DNA of 64,000 nucleotides from Pseudomonadota bacterium (GTDB taxonomy: Bacteria > Bdellovibrionota > Bdellovibrionia > Bdellovibrionales > Bdellovibrionaceae), in NCBI GenBank assembly GCA_041178425.1, contig JBEGVH010000006.1:32001-96000 (forward strand), written 5' to 3'. This document shows positions 7,006 to 14,160 of the stretch, one piece after another. Both the position numbers and the translations under genes were made by a program. The notes below the pieces were generated by a model. That model did no database searches and was not told where the DNA came from. It saw only the letters and a list, made by a program, of their open reading frames with translations. How positions within the stretch are numbered: the stretch's first letter is position 1; each line of letters begins with the position of its first letter.

Positions 7006-8460
7006 ATGTCACTCGTTGTTTATAATAGTCTCTCGCGAAAGAAAGAAGCCTTTCAAAGCTTGGTTCCTGGCCACGTAAAGATGTATTGTTGTGGACCAAC
7101 GGTTTATGACCTTCTGCATGTTGGAAATTTTCGCGGCGCTATTTTTTACAACTTCGTTCGTCATTGGCTCGAGTATCTCGGATACCAAACAACCTTTGTT
7201 TACAATTACACCGATGTGGATGATAAGATCATTCGCCGGGCTCAAGAGGAAAAGGTTACCAGCGAGTCGGTGGCCGAGCGTTTTATTGCTGAGTTTGAAA
7301 AAGACTTTGCGACTCTTGGCTTGAGAAAGCATGACTTTAATCCGCGGGTTACTCAGCACATTGACTCAATCATTGAAATCATAAAAGTTCTTGTCGAAAA
7401 AGAAAAAGCCTACGTTGTTAACGGTGAGGTACTTTATAGTATTGCGGCCTTTCCTGAGTACGGCAAGCTCAGTGGTCGTAATCCTGAAGAACTCATAGCC
7501 GGCGCTCGAGTCGAGGTTGATCAGCGAAAACGCAATCCTTTGGACTTTGCGCTTTGGAAACCCTCAAAGCCTGGGGAGCCCAGTTGGGAGAGTCCGTGGG
7601 GACCGGGACGTCCTGGTTGGCATATTGAATGCTCAGCGATGGTTCGAAGTATTCTTGGTGACCAAATCGATATTCATGGTGGCGGTTCTGATCTGATATT
7701 TCCTCATCACGAAAACGAAATTGCTCAGAGCGAAGGCTGTACGGGGCATGCACTTGCTCGCTATTGGATTCATAACAATATGTTTACGTTTAGTGGCCAA
7801 AAAATGTCGAAGTCGCTGGGTAACATTTGGCGGGCGCGGGAATTTCTCCAAGAGTACAACGCTGAGATTTATAAATACATGGTATTGAGTGTTCACTATC
7901 GAAGCTTGGCGGAGTTCTCCGAAGGAACGGCAGAGCTTGCGATTAAGGCTCTTGCGCGGATTTACTCTTCGCTGAGTTTGGCTGAGAGCTTGTTGAAAGA
8001 GACGGGCGAAGAGGCTCCTCACCCTGAGTGGGAATTAAAACTCAAGACTGCTTGGTCTAAGATTGAAGAGACCCTCAACGACGATTTTGGAACGCCCGAA
8101 GCTTTTGCACAGATTTTTGATTTGGTTCGCGATTTTAACAACCAAGTTCGTCGCGGCATGAAGCTGACGCCAAAAATGCGCACAGTCATTCGTCAATACG
8201 TTGAGTTCATCCGTAAGTTTGGAGCTCTCTTGGCGCTGTTTCAACAAGATGCCTCGCAATTTTTAATCGACCTCGATGATCGTCTCTTGCTTAAGAAAAA
8301 TCTGAAACGAGAGGATATTGACCGTTTGGTGATGGAACGCCAAAAAATCAGGGAAGCGAAAGATTTTAAACGGGCTGATGAATTAAGAGTGGAGTTAACC
8401 GCGCTGGGAATCCAGGTGGCAGACACTCCCCAGGGGTCATTTTGGGAAGTGCAAAAGTAA
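7006..8460 (+). CDS. cysS: Cysteine--tRNA ligase
   Basis: [40 protein letters not shown]. Confidence 0.97.
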
Positions 8461-10526
8461 AGTCCTCAAAGAAAAAGAGTCTGTTTCGGCTTCACTCGGA
8501 ATTTCAGCCGTCGGGTGATCAGCCTCAAGCGATTCAAAAACTGGTTGAGAATTTTTCCACCGGTGCCAAACATCAAGTGCTCTTGGGAGTCACCGGCAGC
8601 GGTAAAACCTTTACAATGGCGCATGTGATTTCACAGCTTCAGCAGCCGGCTCTCGTCTTAGCTCCAAATAAAACCCTGGCAGCCCAACTCTATAGCGAAT
8701 TTAAAGAACTGTTTCCAGAAAATGCCGTTGAGTATTTCGTGAGCTATTACGATTACTATCAGCCCGAGGCCTATGTGCCGTCGACCGATACATTTATTGA
8801 GAAGGATTCGGCGATTAACGAGCATATCGATCGCATGCGCCACTCGGCTACGCGCTCTCTCTTTGAGCGCAAAGATGTGATTATAGTGGCCAGTGTTTCT
8901 TGTATTTATGGGCTTGGGAGTCCTGAATCCTATCTTGGGATGATGGTTTCTGTGGAGGTGGGGCAGAAGCTCAAACGCGATGCCTTCTTGAAGGAGCTTA
9001 TTCGCATTCAGTATCAGCGCAATAATATCGATTTCCATCGTGGAACCATCAAAGTTCGTGGTGATGTGGTCGATGTGTTCCCGAGTTATGAAGAGACTCG
9101 CGCTTTGCGCTTTGAATTTTTTGGTGATTATATTGATAAGATTTGCTGGTTTGATGTTTTAACAGGTGAAGTGTTTGATGAATTAGAGAAAGCTTCTGTG
9201 TTTCCGGCGAGCCACTACGTGAACGGAGACGACGTTCTTAAAAAAGCGATTGGAACGATTCAAGAAGAGCTTCGTGCACGAATCAAAGATTTCGAAAATC
9301 AGTTAAAGTTCCTCGAAGCCAAGCGAATCGAACAGCGCACCTACTACGACATCGAAATGATGGAGTCGATCGGGTTCTGTCAGGGCATTGAAAACTACTC
9401 GCGGCATATGACAGGCCGTGGCCCTGGTGAAGCACCTCCCACCTTGCTCGAATATTTTCCGGCGGAGTTTTTGACCATTGTGGATGAAAGCCATGTGACT
9501 ATTCCGCAAATCGGGGGAATGTATCGTGGCGATCGGGCGCGCAAGATGACTCTAGTGGAATATGGATTTCGTCTTCCCTCGGCCCTAGATAACCGGCCAT
9601 TGAATTTTCAAGAATACGAAAAACTCATGGACAAGGTCGTCTATGTGTCGGCGACCCCTGGGCCCTACGATATGCAAAAAAGTGAAGGCTTAGTCGTTGA
9701 GCAAATCATTCGTCCGACTGGGCTCTTAGACCCCCTTGTTGAGGTCCGTCCGGTGCGAACGCAGGTGGATGATTTGCTTAAGGAGATTCGCATTCGCATC
9801 AAAGCGAAAGAACGCGTGCTGATTACGACTCTCACGAAAAAAAGTGCTGAAGATCTTACGGAGTACTATGAGTCATTGAATATAAAAGTTAAATATCTCC
9901 ACAGCGATATAGATACTGTGCAGAGAACAGAGATTCTCAGAGATCTTCGTTTGGGTGTTTTTGATGTGTTGGTAGGAATCAACCTTTTACGAGAAGGTCT
10001 CGACTTGCCGGAGGTGAGTTTGGTTGGTATCACCGACGCTGACAAAGAAGGTTTTCTTCGTTCTGAGCGTTCATTGATTCAAACCATAGGGCGGGCAGCG
10101 AGAAATGCCAATGGCCGAGTGATTCTTTATGCGGATAAAGTGACTGACTCGATGTTCAAGGCCATGTCGGAGACGGAACGTCGGCGCCAGCTTCAGCAAG
10201 AATACAATGAAAAGCATGGGATCACCCCTGCCACGGTCAAACGAAAAATAAAAGATGGCCTGGGGGAGATGTTTGATGGATCTTTGTCTAAAACTATTCT
10301 TCGCTCGCAAGCACAAAGTAAAATAGCCGAAACAAAAGCTATTTATGCCCTCAAACCAACAGAATTGCGGGCGAAAATTGATGAACTGCGTGCCAAAATG
10401 AAAGCCTTGGCTCAAAAGTTAGAATTCGAGGAGGCCGCTAAACTTCGAGATGAAGTTCGTCGTCTCGAACTCCTTGAACTCGAAAATCTTGAGGGCGTCA
10501 TTGGGCGCGAGAGTGACAATGAGTAG
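8442..10526 (+). CDS. uvrB: Excinuclease ABC subunit B
   Basis: [35 protein letters not shown]-terminal UVR coiled coil; start codon uncertain (TTG). Confidence 0.97.
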
Positions 10527-12432
10527 GTCTATTGGGCAGTCACTGGTGAACTCAAAAATTGACGATCTCAAGGACCGTGTGAGGGATTTTCCGGATCAGT
10601 CGGGTGTCTATCTCATGAAAAATAGCACCGATAAAATCATCTACGTTGGTAAAGCGAAAAATCTCAAACAGCGGGTGCGAAGTTATTTGGGTGAAAGCAA
10701 AGACCTAACGCCGAAGACTCGACTTCTCGTCGCCAATATTCACGTGATCGATTATATTCTTACGAAAACCGAAGTAGAGGCGTTCCTTCTCGAAGCTTCG
10801 TTGATCAAAAAACACCGTCCAAAATTTAATATCCGTCTCAAAGATGATAAAAACTACCCTTATATTCGCGTTTCGATGAAAGACGAGTACCCACGCCTTT
10901 ATTTGAGCCGCACGGTCAAACCCGATGGGTCTCTGTATTTTGGCCCTTATACGAGGGGCGGTAGTGTTTTTGAGACCATGCGCTTTCTCAATCAATCCTT
11001 TCAATTGCGTGATTGCACCGACCACAATCTTAAAACGAGAGAACGCCCGTGTATTAACTTTCAACTGGCACGCTGTTCGGCCCCTTGTGTGAAATTGGTG
11101 AATACCACAAATTACGGTGAGGATATCGCGAAAGCTCTTCAGTTTTTGCGGGGTCAAAGTCAGGAATTGATCGACGAGCTCAAGCAAAGAATGTTGCATC
11201 TCTCGGATGAAGAAAAATACGAACAGGCCGCTCGCTGGCGCGATACCTTACGTTCATTAACAGCGATTCTTGAAAAACAATCGGTGGTTGATCCCAACGC
11301 AAAAAAAGATGTCGATATCGTTTGTTTTGTGGGAGATCAGCGTGGAACGATGATTCAGTTTTTGCACGTTCGTCAGGGGCGTGTGCTCGGTACTCGCTCG
11401 CAATTTTTATCGGGCCTTGATCCACAAGATCCCAATGAGGATCCGCGCGAGTGGTTTGTGTCGGTGATCAATCAATATTTTTGGGAGAACATTGTGCCTG
11501 AGGAGGTCGTTCTCTCCTTTGATATCGGCGTAGAGATGATGCGCCTCATGCAAAAAGTATTGACGGAACGGCGAGGGAGTGAGGTCTTAATTAAGATCGG
11601 AACCCACGATGAAAAAGAAAAAGAACTCTTAGAATTGACTCTGAACAATGCGCGGGTGGCGCTCGAGAAACAATCAGAAAAAGTGGAATCCAAAAAGAAG
11701 GGTCTCGAAGAGATTAAAGAGAAATTCAACCTTCCACAGATTCCTTTTCGAATTGAGTGCTATGATATTTCCAATTTTCAAGGGCGTGAGATCGTTGCGA
11801 GTCAGGTGGTTTTTGAAAAAGGGATTCCGGCCAAAGATCAGTATCGACTTTATAAGATCAAGTCTCTGAAAGACGCCAACGATTTTGCCTCCATGAAAGA
11901 AGTCCTCAGTCGGCGTTTTAAGCATCAGGAGTGGGAGGATCCTCAATTGGTGGTTGTTGATGGCGGTAAGGGCCAGTTGAATTTCGCTCTACAAGCTCTC
12001 AAAGAAGTGGGTAAGGACCACCTTCCTTTGGTATCACTCGCGAAAGCCAAAACTGAAAGTGATTTTGAAAAAACGGAAGTGCAAGGATCTGAGGAGCGAT
12101 TTTTTCTGCCGGGGCGACAGAATCCTGTGCTCTTTCGTAAAAATAGTGAAGGCTTAAGAATACTCACTCATCTTCGTGATGAGGCCCATCGTTTTGCGAT
12201 CACGTTTCACCGAAAGCTGCGTGATAAAAAGAGTCTGGGATCTATTCTCGATGAGATCGAAGGCGTGGGTGAGAAACGTAAGAAGCTTCTTTTGGAGCGC
12301 TTCAGCGGCCTTGAGGCCATAATGGCCGCCACGGCCGAAGAAATTGCAGCTCTTCCGAGTTTTAATTTAGATTTAGCCGAAGAGATTAAGGCGTTTCTCA
12401 TGAACGAACTGGGTGATGATTCCCAGCCCTAA
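10519..12432 (+). CDS. uvrC: Excinuclease ABC subunit C
   Basis: GVYLM...[14 protein letters not shown], Cys cluster, [20 protein letters not shown], HhH; ATG at 10519 overlaps the end of uvrB. Confidence 0.97.
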
Positions 12433-12482
12433 AAAATAGAAAAGTCCGCTCAGCTATCTTCCTGATAACAAAAGCGGACTTT
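12433..12482 (-). terminator. Hairpin terminator closing the minus-strand riboswitch transcript (possibly bidirectional, also serving uvrC)
   Basis: Inverted repeat AAAGTCCGCT(12441-50)/AGCGGACTTT(12473-82); on the minus strand followed by TCTATTTTTT. Confidence 0.75.
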
Positions 12483-12504
12483 AAGGGGAATAAAACCGTT
12501 CCAT
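12481..12504 (-). CDS. Candidate micro-ORF MERFYSP downstream of the c-di-GMP riboswitch
   Basis: AAGGAAGGAG-atcccc-ATG GAA CGG TTT TAT TCC CCT TAA; the only ORF between aptamer and terminator. Confidence 0.45.
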   Translation of the reverse strand: MERFYSP

Positions 12505-12553
12505 GGGGATCTCCTTCCTTCTCTAAATAAACCTACCTTAGGCTTTTTATCGA

Positions 12554-12646
12554 CCTTTGGCACACTGGCTGGCATTTCTCATCCGGAGAATTAGCCCCTT
12601 TAGTTTTGCGTCCCATCGTTTCCAATGGTTTGCCCTGAGACAAAGG
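12554..12646 (-). ncRNA. c-di-GMP-I (GEMM) riboswitch aptamer
   Basis: Minus strand CCTTTGtctcaGGGCAAACCATTG-GAAA-CGATGGGACGCAAAACT...GGCTAA-TTCTC-cggat-GAGAA-ATGCCAGCCAGTgtgcCAAAGG: P1 CCTTTG/CAAAGG, P2 with GAAA tetraloop, GACGCAAA junction, tetraloop receptor in P3; G at the Vc2 G20-equivalent position. Confidence 0.9.
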
Positions 12647-12775
12647 AAGGATATGACATATATTTAATTTTTCTATATCATTCCTAGACTAGAAAAAAAC
12701 CTCGATAGAGCCTCCTTAATTATTTAGTTGAAAAAACGTACCGCAACCAAATTTTAAAAACCTAGTTGGGCTTCG

Positions 12776-12826
12776 CTACTTTGGTGCACGGGATTCGCAA
12801 GCTCTGTGCTTCCTGGCTTTGCTCAT
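12776..12826 (-). CDS. Candidate 16-aa basic micro-ORF MSKARKHRACESRAPK
   Basis: AAAAGGAGG-gtgggac-ATG...TAG; near-ideal SD and spacing, no other support. Confidence 0.3.
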   Translation of the reverse strand: MSKARKHRACESRAPK

Positions 12827-12941
12827 GTCCCACCCTCCTTTTGAGCGTCGTTTGGAACCAACGCGCTAACAAAATCAGGTTACTAAACAATGTTAGTTTT
12901 TACAAATTTTTGAGGGGACTGCGTATCAGGTTGACGACTGT

Positions 12942-13088
12942 TAAGAATATCAACGGCTTAACCGATGAAAATCGTTTTATTAGGAGACAAATCTCAAAAG
13001 TGTTCAAAATAAAAATCAAAAAAAAGTGGATCGAAAAAACTAGAGAATAACTTTGAGCGCTCTAGAATCCCTCTCTGGAGCGTTTTCT
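12942..13088 (+). ncRNA. Candidate sigma28-driven short RNA (promoter 12942-12968, terminator 13057-13088)
   Basis: TAAG-N15-ACCGATGA; downstream hairpin GCGCTCTAGA/TCTGGAGCGT pairs fully only on the + strand (G-U pairs), followed by TTTCT. Confidence 0.3.
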
Positions 13089-13104
13089 AAGTCGATAGTA
13101 AAAA

Positions 13105-14160
13105 TTATTTGGCGTCGAGGTTTGATTTTATAGAGGCTTTATTGGCGAAAGACGCAACCGCATCAGAGCCATAAAAAAGAAGTTCTAAGTCCTCCCACTC
13201 AACACCAATATAAACCTGTTGCTCTTCAATTAATCGCTTCAGCTCATTCATCTTAATGCTGGCTTCCATCACATAAGGATCGGCATAGGCTGTTGCTTTT
13301 GCGAGGGAGGGAGTAGTGAAGAGGCTTTCTTGCCAATTGGGGCTCGACAGAAAAAAAGTGAGATAGTTTTTGTGAAGGTTGAGTCGTTCATGAGGAGTTT
13401 TGGTGGAAGTGTTTAATTCTATCTTGGAGAGGCTTTGATTCCAATCTTTATACTTCGAATTGGAATTCAATTCGACAGTTAGTTGCGCACGGAGAGAATC
13501 AAATTCTGTTTGTGCAAAATGAGGATCGTTCAACTTTTGGATGAGGAGAAGGAATAGAGCTTGAGCTTTGCCGAGTCCTCGATAAAGGGTGACTTTATCG
13601 TCCTTAGAAAATTGGTTCTTTAAAAACAAGAATAGCTCCCTATGAGCGTTTTTGCGTGAGTAATTGTATGATTGAGTTTCGCTATCAAAAGCGAAATAGG
13701 GTTGTGCAGGTAAAACCGACTGAATCGGATCTAATTCTTTGTGTCCGAATTCAAAAAATCGCTGATTGCGATAGTAGCCCTCTAAAAAAAGGGATCCATT
13801 GATGAGGACCCAACGATTGTCGAAGCGACGGCCGGTTTCGAACGCCGTTACAATCTCCTTGTTAGAACGCTCAAACATTCTTCTGCCCATCGTTGGATGC
13901 GTAGTAATGAAGGGTGTTCGTTTGAGGAAGTTCTCGTCAAACCAATCAAGTTCGCTGTTAATCCATAGGTTCCGCTCTGAAGGGGGTAGGTTAAGAACGA
14001 CGTCGTTGAGATTATTGAGACGAACTTGAAACGCTTTTTGGTTGAGTGTTGTTGCGCATTTGTGGATGCTACCCAATGATTTGGCTGTAGCCGCCGCTAG
14101 TGAAGGGCCCATGTTTCCAACTAAAAAAGAAAAAGCCAAAAAAAGTTTTAGAATTGTCAC
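13105..14160 (-). CDS. Secreted hypothetical protein, possible ADP-ribosyltransferase-like fold
   Basis: Signal peptide; VTLYRGL ... LFTTPSLAKATAYA ... EWEDLELLF pattern; GGGGAG SD before GTG. Confidence 0.6.
   Translation of the reverse strand: MTILKLFLAFSFLVGNMGPSLAAATAKSLGSIHKCATTLNQKAFQVRLNNLNDVVLNLPPSERNLWINSELDWFDENFLKRTPFITTHPTMGRRMFERSNKEIVTAFETGRRFDNRWVLINGSLFLEGYYRNQRFFEFGHKELDPIQSVLPAQPYFAFDSETQSYNYSRKNAHRELFLFLKNQFSKDDKVTLYRGLGKAQALFLLLIQKLNDPHFAQTEFDSLRAQLTVELNSNSKYKDWNQSLSKIELNTSTKTPHERLNLHKNYLTFFLSSPNWQESLFTTPSLAKATAYADPYVMEASIKMNELKRLIEEQQVYIGVEWEDLELLFYGSDAVASFANKASIKSNLDAK

Follow-up and report, generated by a model that had tools for sequence, protein, structure and literature searches.

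The closest described relative of the locus studied here is merRNA, an RNA of Bdellovibrio bacteriovorus HD100 that lies at 1,073,741 to 1,074,185 on the reverse strand (445 nucleotides, nt) and that was reported in 2013 to be about as abundant in attack-phase cells as all mRNAs together (PMC3627812). Karunker et al. (2013) describe no conserved open reading frame (ORF) downstream of the riboswitch and propose that the RNA is a store of cyclic di-GMP (c-di-GMP) (PMC3627812). According to a 2019 preprint, the function of merRNA had never been directly tested (10.1101/617340), and later papers used its promoter or mentioned the RNA in passing. We found no report of an ORF within merRNA in the Bdellovibrio merRNA and riboswitch literature, subscription papers and bioRxiv supplements lying outside this search. 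Here, we analyzed a minus-strand c-di-GMP-I riboswitch in a stretch of 64,000 nt from an uncultured member of the Bdellovibrionaceae (GenBank assembly GCA_041178425.1, contig JBEGVH010000006.1, positions 32,001 to 96,000; "the window"). We propose, with a probability of roughly 45%, that it belongs to a merRNA orthologue in which a conserved, helix-masked terminal micro-ORF acts as a c-di-GMP-gated expression platform.

Like merRNA of HD100, the window RNA would be transcribed on its own, from its own promoter to its own terminator, over ~430 to 445 nt, with the c-di-GMP-I aptamer in its 3' half and no gene downstream. What the window adds to the published account is a terminal micro-ORF and a masking helix, both conserved, and another micro-ORF upstream. 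In the window's genus, the RNA lies beside uvrC, whereas the Bdellovibrio merRNA lies between mrp and an SLT-LysM gene; moreover, the terminal micro-ORF is cut to 7 codons, and the ancestral start block is now a Shine-Dalgarno (SD) sequence. The likeness is one of sequence and collinearity, massive attack-phase expression being known for the published RNA only.

The locus and its relation to merRNA

An earlier note on this DNA, made from the letters alone, had read a complete GEMM-I aptamer on the minus strand, facing the 3' end of uvrC, and had suggested an Infernal scan. The scan (cmscan against Rfam) agrees: only RF01051, c-di-GMP-I, passed its gathering score in the window, with one match over the full model (positions 1-87 of 87) on the minus strand at 12556-12644 that scored 67.2 bits (cut-off 35; E 5.5e-11), and uvrC is convergent by its Pfam domains. 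A permissive Rfam scan of 12300-13150 scored the aptamer as in the standard scan and gave no further family, the next-best match (E 0.21) falling far under its cut-off. The whole 3.06-Mb assembly holds one copy of the aptamer. The P1 helix that characterizes GEMM-I is present, its six pairs being formed in 98.1% of 581 alignment cells from 97 relatives. The GG ahead of CAAA is invariant in these 97 relatives, as expected for the c-di-GMP rather than the 3',3'-cyclic GMP-AMP (3',3'-cGAMP) type by the "position 20" specificity rule, and c-di-GMP is the predicted ligand. The usual placement of a riboswitch, in the 5' leader of a cis-regulated protein gene, is not found here, where the adjoining gene is the convergent uvrC. 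The elements on which the argument rests are as follows (all on the minus strand).

12556..12644: c-di-GMP-I (GEMM-I) aptamer, RF01051
12646-12641 with 12559-12554: helix P1, CCTTTG with CAAAGG, read from the sequence
12643..12654: anti-SD element X, ATATCCTTCCTT, which shares its last four bases with the start of the P1 5' strand
12530..12544: linker hairpin AGCCUA-AGG-UAGGUU between aptamer and SD, present in the minimum free energy (MFE) and centroid folds
12509..12520: SD element Y, AAGGAAGGAGAT, with its AGGAG core at 12515-12511, 6 nt ahead of the ATG
12481..12504: terminal micro-ORF (sORF2), ATG GAA CGG TTT TAT TCC CCT TAA (MERFYSP*)
12481..12498: nucleotide-conserved block M, CGGTTTTATTCCCCTTAA (family consensus GGTTTCATTCCCCTTAG), present in 130 of 139 family entries
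12431..12482: intrinsic terminator, with an 11-bp stem (12482-12472 with 12451-12441) and a 20-nt loop that includes an inner stem

The MERFYSP ORF was found where the earlier note had placed it, 6 bases past the SD and followed by the terminator; its distance of about 50 nt from P1 holds for the ATG (50 nt) but not for the SD (34 nt). The first arm of the terminator stem begins within the stop codon of sORF2, and the terminator tail, TCTATTTTTT (12440-12431), overlaps the uvrC stop codon. The hairpin was seen both by folding and by a dedicated hairpin scan. A consensus promoter/terminator scanner called nothing on the minus strand, because its limits (loop of at most 8 nt, 9 of 12 hexamer matches) exclude both the terminator and the promoter. 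A hairpin at the linker position also occurs in the relatives (alignment A1).

The earlier note left open whether this locus corresponds to merRNA; from sequence comparison, we consider it very probably an orthologue. In G109, a complete genome of the family, the aptamer match (1073868-1073951, minus strand) falls within the published merRNA interval, and the published ends, placed on this genome, delimit a 234-nt leader, the aptamer, and a 127-nt tail that finishes in the terminator T-run. The window and the G109 locus are collinear through the promoter block, CCTTCC beside P1, the aptamer, GGAAGG, GGTTTYATTCCCCTTA, and the terminator, and the window thus has both the homology and the collinearity expected of a merRNA.

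The element is widespread. RF01051 was matched in all 36 sampled genomes of the family and in 47 of 61 genomes overall; a wider draw gave 143 of 150 family genomes (116 of the 118 of good quality, 40 of 41 genera), nearly always with one match per genome. For comparison we used 147 loci, 10 of which are from other families. In 23 of 27 family loci the next gene downstream is convergent, so that the absence of a conventional gene to control, already pointed out for the window, extends to the relatives. In all five loci of the window's genus this neighbor is uvrC, which is not the neighbor in other genera; there, an SLT-LysM transglycosylase gene is downstream in nine loci, and a Mrp/ParA-type ATPase gene lies upstream in five loci. 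Because the neighbors differ between genera, the RNA gene appears to move as a unit, without a conserved read-through target. Sister families have aptamer, SD, micro-ORF, and terminator in the same arrangement.

The terminal micro-ORF and the masking helix

Conservation of the tail was followed through a GGTTTCATTCCCCT-type block just ahead of the terminator. Among 139 family entries, 130 carry this motif, 4 have too little downstream sequence, and 5 lack it, 2 of these being conventional riboswitches ahead of signal-peptide genes. One locus (L145, G142:C154:2871-4712) has two tandem c-di-GMP-I aptamers, each directly before a gene for a small signal-peptide protein; the same genome also holds a merRNA-type copy (L146), and the tandem aptamers were read as conventional riboswitches. 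The motif-bearing loci show two start platforms. In type A (90 of 130), the ATG is fused to the conserved GGAAGG (ATGGAAGG); in type B (27 of 130, including the window's genus), GGAAGG(AG) stands as an SD 4 to 8 nt before the ATG. The remaining 13 were left untyped by this rule.

The 117 typed loci gave 85 unique ATG-to-block sequences. Stops are absent from the ATG frame of all 85, whereas 35 and 25 of them have one in the other two frames. As regards the conservation across relatives that the earlier note had thought worth examining, the micro-ORF is thus open in 85 of 85 sequences. The ATG-to-block lengths fall into seven in-frame classes of 30 to 54 nt, and the block is read as ...F(H/Y)SP-stop in 65 of the 85. 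Over the 130 motif-bearing loci the ORF is 7 to 24 codons long (37 in one), with 14 to 18 in most relatives, and usually follows the pattern ME[GV]...DWFHSP*. Typical products are MEGINTYKDWFHSP, MEVKNCSKNYIMDWFHSP, and MQKNTKRFHSP, and the window's genus has MERF(Y/N)SP. An SD, GAGGTG or GGAAGGAG, is properly spaced in most relatives, and the terminator directly follows the motif in most of them, its stem sequence differing. Automated calling recovered an ORF ending on the terminator for 25 of 30 genus representatives, with 0.43 expected from shuffled sequences; the five misses were T-run mis-calls, and the ORF is listed there in the direct locus readings.

The form seen in the window can be derived from the longer one. 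In the alignment, MERFYSP* falls on the seven final codons, (K/M)DWFHSP*, of the longer ORFs, and element Y corresponds by homology to the ATGGAAGG start block that most relatives have; this ancestral block became AGAAGGAAGG in the window's genus, where it acts as an SD. By this alignment the window ORF is shortened from its 5' side, since its ATG stands where G109 has the (K/M) of ...(K/M)DWFHSP.

The second element of the proposed platform is a long-range helix. As the earlier note had noticed, ATATCCTTCCTT is complementary to 12520-12509, with 11 of 12 pairs formed and 9 of them contiguous (RNAduplex, -13.5 kcal/mol). This pairing takes four of the six bases of the P1 5' strand (12646-12643). 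The 9-mer AAGGAAGGA occurs twice in the window, counting both strands, at the SD and anti-SD sites, with ~1.1 occurrences expected in the whole window; since it falls at just these sites, a complement 123 nt away is unlikely to have arisen by chance.

The covariation analysis that the earlier note had in view was made with 97 unique type A relatives (alignment A1). In these, the CCTTCC core of the anti-SD is conserved. Over the eight proposed helix pairs, 82% of alignment cells are paired, and each of the six core pairs occurs in 89 to 100% of sequences. Pair 10:209 shows 15 double changes, 10 of them from C-G to A-U. The covariation score was 0.214, compared with 0.160 in shuffles (0 of 500 reached 0.214), and every slid register scored lower. 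The helix is thus conserved, with some covariation. C14 and C15 pair either with G153 and G152, in the outer two pairs of P1, or with G205 and G204, in the helix.

Ligand-free partition-function folds of the window, G109, and a third locus (L024) gave P1 a probability of 0.0, with the helix in the MFE and centroid structures of all three. Forcing P1 cost 4.3, 6.9, and 1.5 kcal/mol, respectively. With a dissociation constant (KD) of ~1 nM, as cited in the merRNA report (PMC3627812), ligand binding could plausibly pay this cost.

Two other kinds of contact were considered. No segment complementary to the 5' arm of the terminator was seen by eye, and a classical terminator/antiterminator platform was rejected: by eye, the stems vary between species while the linker stays conserved. 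Pairing of block M with the start region of the upstream micro-ORF (sORF1, described below) was rejected as well, the duplexes being no better than with shuffled M (mean z 0.07; 1 of 73 below -1.64). Nor did M pair with the linker plus GGAAGG (mean z +0.65) or with the leader between elements W and X (mean z +0.66; W is described below). Duplexes of M with AGGGG of the aptamer were weakly better than shuffles (z -0.78; 19 of 117). In these models, it looks as if block M is kept single-stranded.

Readings of the expression platform

A riboswitch-gated micro-ORF is well supported by these observations, and from them we infer its translation, its ON polarity, and its output. In the absence of ligand, the CCTTCC/GGAAGG helix would win, leaving P1 open and the SD or start codon masked. 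Binding of c-di-GMP would lock P1 and weaken the mask, so that ribosomes would load and translate up to the stop codon abutting the terminator hairpin. The expression platform would then be the terminal micro-ORF, of 7 codons here, and not a gene. Its output would most likely be not the peptide but the passage of ribosomes along the RNA, which could shield or expose the 3' hairpin and the conserved single-stranded GGTTTYATTCCCCTTA. We lean towards sORF2 being translated; that c-di-GMP turns it on is more tentative and slightly less likely than not.

Several observations weigh against this proposal. The earlier note had predicted an ON switch, and the folding models do not bear this out: enforcing P1 left the start region as paired as before, the unpaired probability from -12 to +5 being 0.37 versus 0.37 in type A (n = 75; up in 16, down in 18), 0.48 versus 0.50 in type B (10 sequences), and 0.43 versus 0.48 in the window. 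Once freed, the purines of the SD pair again, with the pyrimidine block of the ORF itself or in a register shifted by two bases. The helix alignment does not include the window's own platform, the SD-masking type B (27 loci), because its SD sits in another register. The covariation comes mostly from one pair and probably reflects few independent events. The overlap of helix and P1 is two to four bases and only two in most genera, and P1 and a shortened helix could therefore coexist there as a three-way junction. The reading of the block is not uniform either: it is one frame over in 15 of the 85 sequences and in the third frame in 5, giving ...WIGFIPL or ...VSFP. One large genus has no normally spaced SD, its GGTG being 13 nt upstream of the ATG. 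Codon periodicity is absent from the middle of the ORF (entropy 0.84/0.96/0.78 by codon position, five length classes, 51 sequences). Finally, column entropy in block M is near zero at third codon positions as well, the synonymous sites of TTT CAT TCC CCT being invariant; this lack of synonymous variation indicates that the block is conserved as RNA. Given the off-frame readings and the invariant synonymous sites, the frame may be open for a reason at the RNA level.

The peptide itself appears weakly constrained, and the 7-residue product that the earlier note had put at the center is unlikely to be what matters, given the absence of periodicity in the ORF middle and the 20 of 85 off-frame blocks. 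Since there is no amino acid constraint and the 3' block is conserved as RNA, we infer that sORF2 is a regulatory, leader-peptide-like frame in which ribosome transit outweighs the peptide. Its Pro-stop ending is reminiscent of slow-terminating sequences.

A first alternative is a structural or "sponge" RNA, in which the aptamer stores c-di-GMP, the helix merely closes the structure, and the micro-ORF is untranslated or irrelevant. The nucleotide-conserved 3' block, the unconstrained ORF middle, a start site that is not opened in the folding models, and the lack of a downstream gene (23 of 27 neighbors convergent) all fit, as do the extreme abundance and the sponge proposal in the merRNA report (PMC3627812). 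Such an RNA would leave unexplained, however, why none of the 85 sequences has a stop in frame when 35 and 25 do in the other frames, why the SD (GAGGTG or GGAAGGAG) is properly spaced in most relatives, and why the ORF survives length changes and its remodelling in the window's genus. Moreover, the helix and P1 have bases in common, for which a simple closing helix would have no need. We regard this explanation as unlikely.

Because thermodynamic coupling works both ways, the linkage of helix and P1 on which our proposal rests could also serve reverse coupling. A ribosome at the micro-ORF start would free CCTTCC, P1 would close, and the aptamer would hold c-di-GMP; when initiation stops, the ligand would be released. 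The missing peptide-level constraint would be of no consequence here, and the abundance of merRNA and a triggered release of c-di-GMP proposed in the merRNA report are in line with it (PMC3627812). It would, however, need stoichiometric ribosome occupancy of a very abundant RNA. Aptamers of the c-di-GMP-I class also have a very slow off-rate, which would slow the release, and this mode of action is quite improbable. The fuller version, in which merRNA is a c-di-GMP store with a ribosome-operated valve and also encodes a real micropeptide, is just as doubtful. If it were true, P1 would open when initiation is lost, as might happen at prey contact, and the messenger would be set free in bulk; the riboswitch would run backwards, from translation state to ligand availability; and an RNA regarded for 13 years as non-coding would turn out to be a bicistronic micro-mRNA.

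A functional micropeptide made on c-di-GMP command (MERFYSP here, ...DWFHSP elsewhere) would account for the presence of the ORF throughout the family, for the F(H/Y)SP ending of 65 of the 85 unique sequences, and for the company of sORF1, which resembles a true peptide gene, on the same RNA. It is very improbable in view of the 20 of 85 blocks read off frame (...WIGFIPL, ...VSFP), the length of 7 to 24 codons with no mid-ORF periodicity, and the invariant synonymous sites of TTT CAT TCC CCT.

Translation-coupled attenuation, in which a ribosome at the stop codon blocks the terminator and c-di-GMP sets the read-through, here antisense into uvrC, takes its appeal from the overlap of the stop codon with the first bases of the stem and from a sister family (f2; L002, L009, and L027). 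There, a Pro-rich micro-ORF, MDITPIFRPPTPP..., lies 3' of the aptamer and extends across the terminator hairpin, and two of the three loci (L002 and L027) have a co-oriented signal-peptide gene 3' of it. This layout suggests riboswitch-controlled leader-peptide attenuation in these two loci, and because of these co-oriented genes such attenuation may be the ancestral use. In the window's own family, by contrast, the downstream gene is convergent in 23 of 27 loci and varies between genera (uvrC in 5, SLT-LysM in 9), RNA contigs stop at 12462 (a weak hint), and merRNA is, as published, a discrete 445-nt species (PMC3627812). For the window, attenuation is a still poorer candidate.

That MERFYSP is the stump of a longer riboswitch-controlled protein, a possibility that the earlier note had raised against itself, is hardly credible: the window's genus does have the shortest ORF of the family and a remodelled ancestral start block, but no long gene, MERFY... 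or other, stands at this position in any relative compared, all 130 motif-bearing loci have 7 to 24 codons (one 37), the terminator directly follows, and 40 of 41 genera have kept the element as a unit.

Upstream features and comparison with known systems

The leader and the neighborhood contain the following further features, the first four on the minus strand and the last on the plus strand.

12877..12905: putative promoter, -35 TTGTAA (12905-12900), 17-nt spacer, -10 TAACCT (12882-12877)
12858..12870: predicted transcription start zone, from the published merRNA start mapped through G109
12776..12840: upstream micro-ORF (sORF1) with its strong SD, AAGGAGGG at 12840-12833, ATG at 12826, 16 codons (MSKARKHRACESRAPK), stop TAG at 12778-12776
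12711..12717: SD-like element W, AAGGAGG, with no start codon 3' of it; GGAGG occurs here in the family loci
10450..12432: uvrC, the convergent neighbor, given as context (Pfam UvrC_RNaseH_dom, GIY-YIG, UVR, HHH)

The putative promoter overlaps a 12-nt block, CCTGATTTTGTT (12879-12868), that is identical in the merRNA locus of G109 (pairwise alignment A3) although the remaining leader has diverged, and that may be the recognition site of the strong attack-phase promoter. The published merRNA start lies 17 nt past this block in G109, which corresponds to ~12860 in the window. A stand-alone transcript from ~12866 to 12433 on the minus strand, ~430 nt long, is predicted from these correspondences, and its extent by merRNA homology places the anti-SD well inside the transcript. 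The start mapped by homology lies >200 nt upstream of the anti-SD, and not downstream of it, a case that the earlier note had named as fatal to its proposal, and RNA contigs span 12462-12849. That note had overlooked the ~220 nt of the RNA further upstream and the second micro-ORF.

Part of 12380-12920 was listed in 20 public runs from 11 studies, 17 of them on record as RNA; the labels of the listed runs are freshwater, sediment, estuary, aquaculture, sludge, and wastewater. So many RNA runs would not usually be expected where a rare predator has an intergenic region, and very high expression would agree with them, bearing in mind that contigs cannot rank abundance. Contigs of four RNA libraries (four studies; 200 to 394 nt) fall only within 12462-12849 and join sORF1, anti-SD, aptamer, and SD in one piece, although contigs cannot prove ends. 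One of them ends in adapter sequence ~11 nt beyond 12847. Positions 12000-12461 and 12850-13300 were uncovered in all four runs, which says nothing about the transcript ends.

sORF1 is kept in the other four species of the genus as MSKSRKQRACESRIPK, MCKTRKQRACESRAPK, MNKSRKQKACESRVPK, and MSIARKHRACESRAPK, and an SD-led ORF of 8 to 40 codons occurs in 88 of 127 unique leaders. In a subgroup from other genera (30 unique sequences) with M(K/R)xRIHDHHDEPPK, invariant residues are encoded by varying synonymous codons (entropy 0.66/0.35/0.85 by codon position). Because this related family varies mainly at third codon positions, sORF1 looks like a true micropeptide gene inside a "non-coding" merRNA.

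Element W is conserved 30 to 70 nt ahead of the aptamer in the family loci and might stabilize the 5' end, pair with another segment, or be a stand-by site for ribosomes. For the leader from W to X, RNAalifold gave no consensus pairs (52 of the 93 unique sequences used). A closing helix between W (AAGGAGG) and M, taken from one MFE fold, was discarded, no consistent compensating changes being seen by eye. The terminator loops (window 12452-12471; L003-L147) share AUCA..GGA/GAnGAU across genera though their stems differ, and GGA motifs in hairpin loops recur along the RNA, in the linker loop AGG, in W, and in GGAAGG; these recurring loops are reminiscent of CsrA-binding RNAs.

As to the neighboring genes, the listed uvrB (8442-10526, plus strand) and uvrC (10450-12432, plus strand) frames overlap by 77 nt, and because of this overlap the true start of uvrC probably lies further downstream. 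UvrC relatives at 74 to 83% identity come from metagenome-assembled genomes (MAGs) titled Pseudobdellovibrionaceae or Bdellovibrionota. A 351-amino-acid ORF 5' of the RNA (13105-14160, minus strand) has no Pfam match.

The platform described here is common to 40 of the 41 family genera. Its masked micro-ORF on the terminator, together with an upstream micro-ORF that bears a coding signature, turns the "mysterious sponge" into a set of simple mutational tests. If our proposal is correct, it would represent a riboswitch architecture whose regulated "gene" is a few codons on the same small RNA, and it would bear on how second-messenger pools, ribosomes, and RNA stability are coupled in a non-growing hunting cell.

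Apart from merRNA, the nearest parallel is provided by the Vc2-containing small RNAs of Vibrio cholerae, which, according to Pursley and Waters, are stabilized by the ligand (10.1101/617340). In these abundant small RNAs, too, there is a c-di-GMP-I aptamer that acts on the fate of the RNA itself and not only on a downstream gene, as the aptamer of the window would. The Vc2 aptamer forms the 3' end, and the ligand protects from 3' decay (10.1101/617340), whereas the aptamer of the window has an internal position, with an ORF and an intrinsic terminator 3' of it.

The Salmonella mgtA leader senses Mg2+ and contains mgtL, a micro-ORF with proline codons whose translation is coupled to RNA conformation. 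The window shares with it the combination of a ligand-sensing RNA and a very short Pro-containing ORF, but mgtL governs transcription into a downstream gene, which the window does not have, and the ligand and aptamer class differ. More generally, the leader-peptide attenuators trpL, pyrL, and mgtL have a co-oriented downstream gene, which is not found in the window.

In the add adenine riboswitch of Vibrio vulnificus, a ligand-stabilized P1 competes with a helix that masks the ribosome-binding site. Unlike in add, the masking strand in the window lies 5' of the aptamer, so that the helix would enclose the whole aptamer, and the frame has 7 to 24 codons with no gene; add is a translational ON switch, which the window RNA is only proposed to be.

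Dual-function small RNAs that encode peptides, such as SgrS/SgrT and RNAIII/delta-haemolysin, are the remaining point of reference. Like these, the window RNA appears to be an abundant "non-coding" RNA with short conserved frames, of which sORF1 bears a coding signature; it differs from them in having a riboswitch between its two frames and no known base-pairing target.

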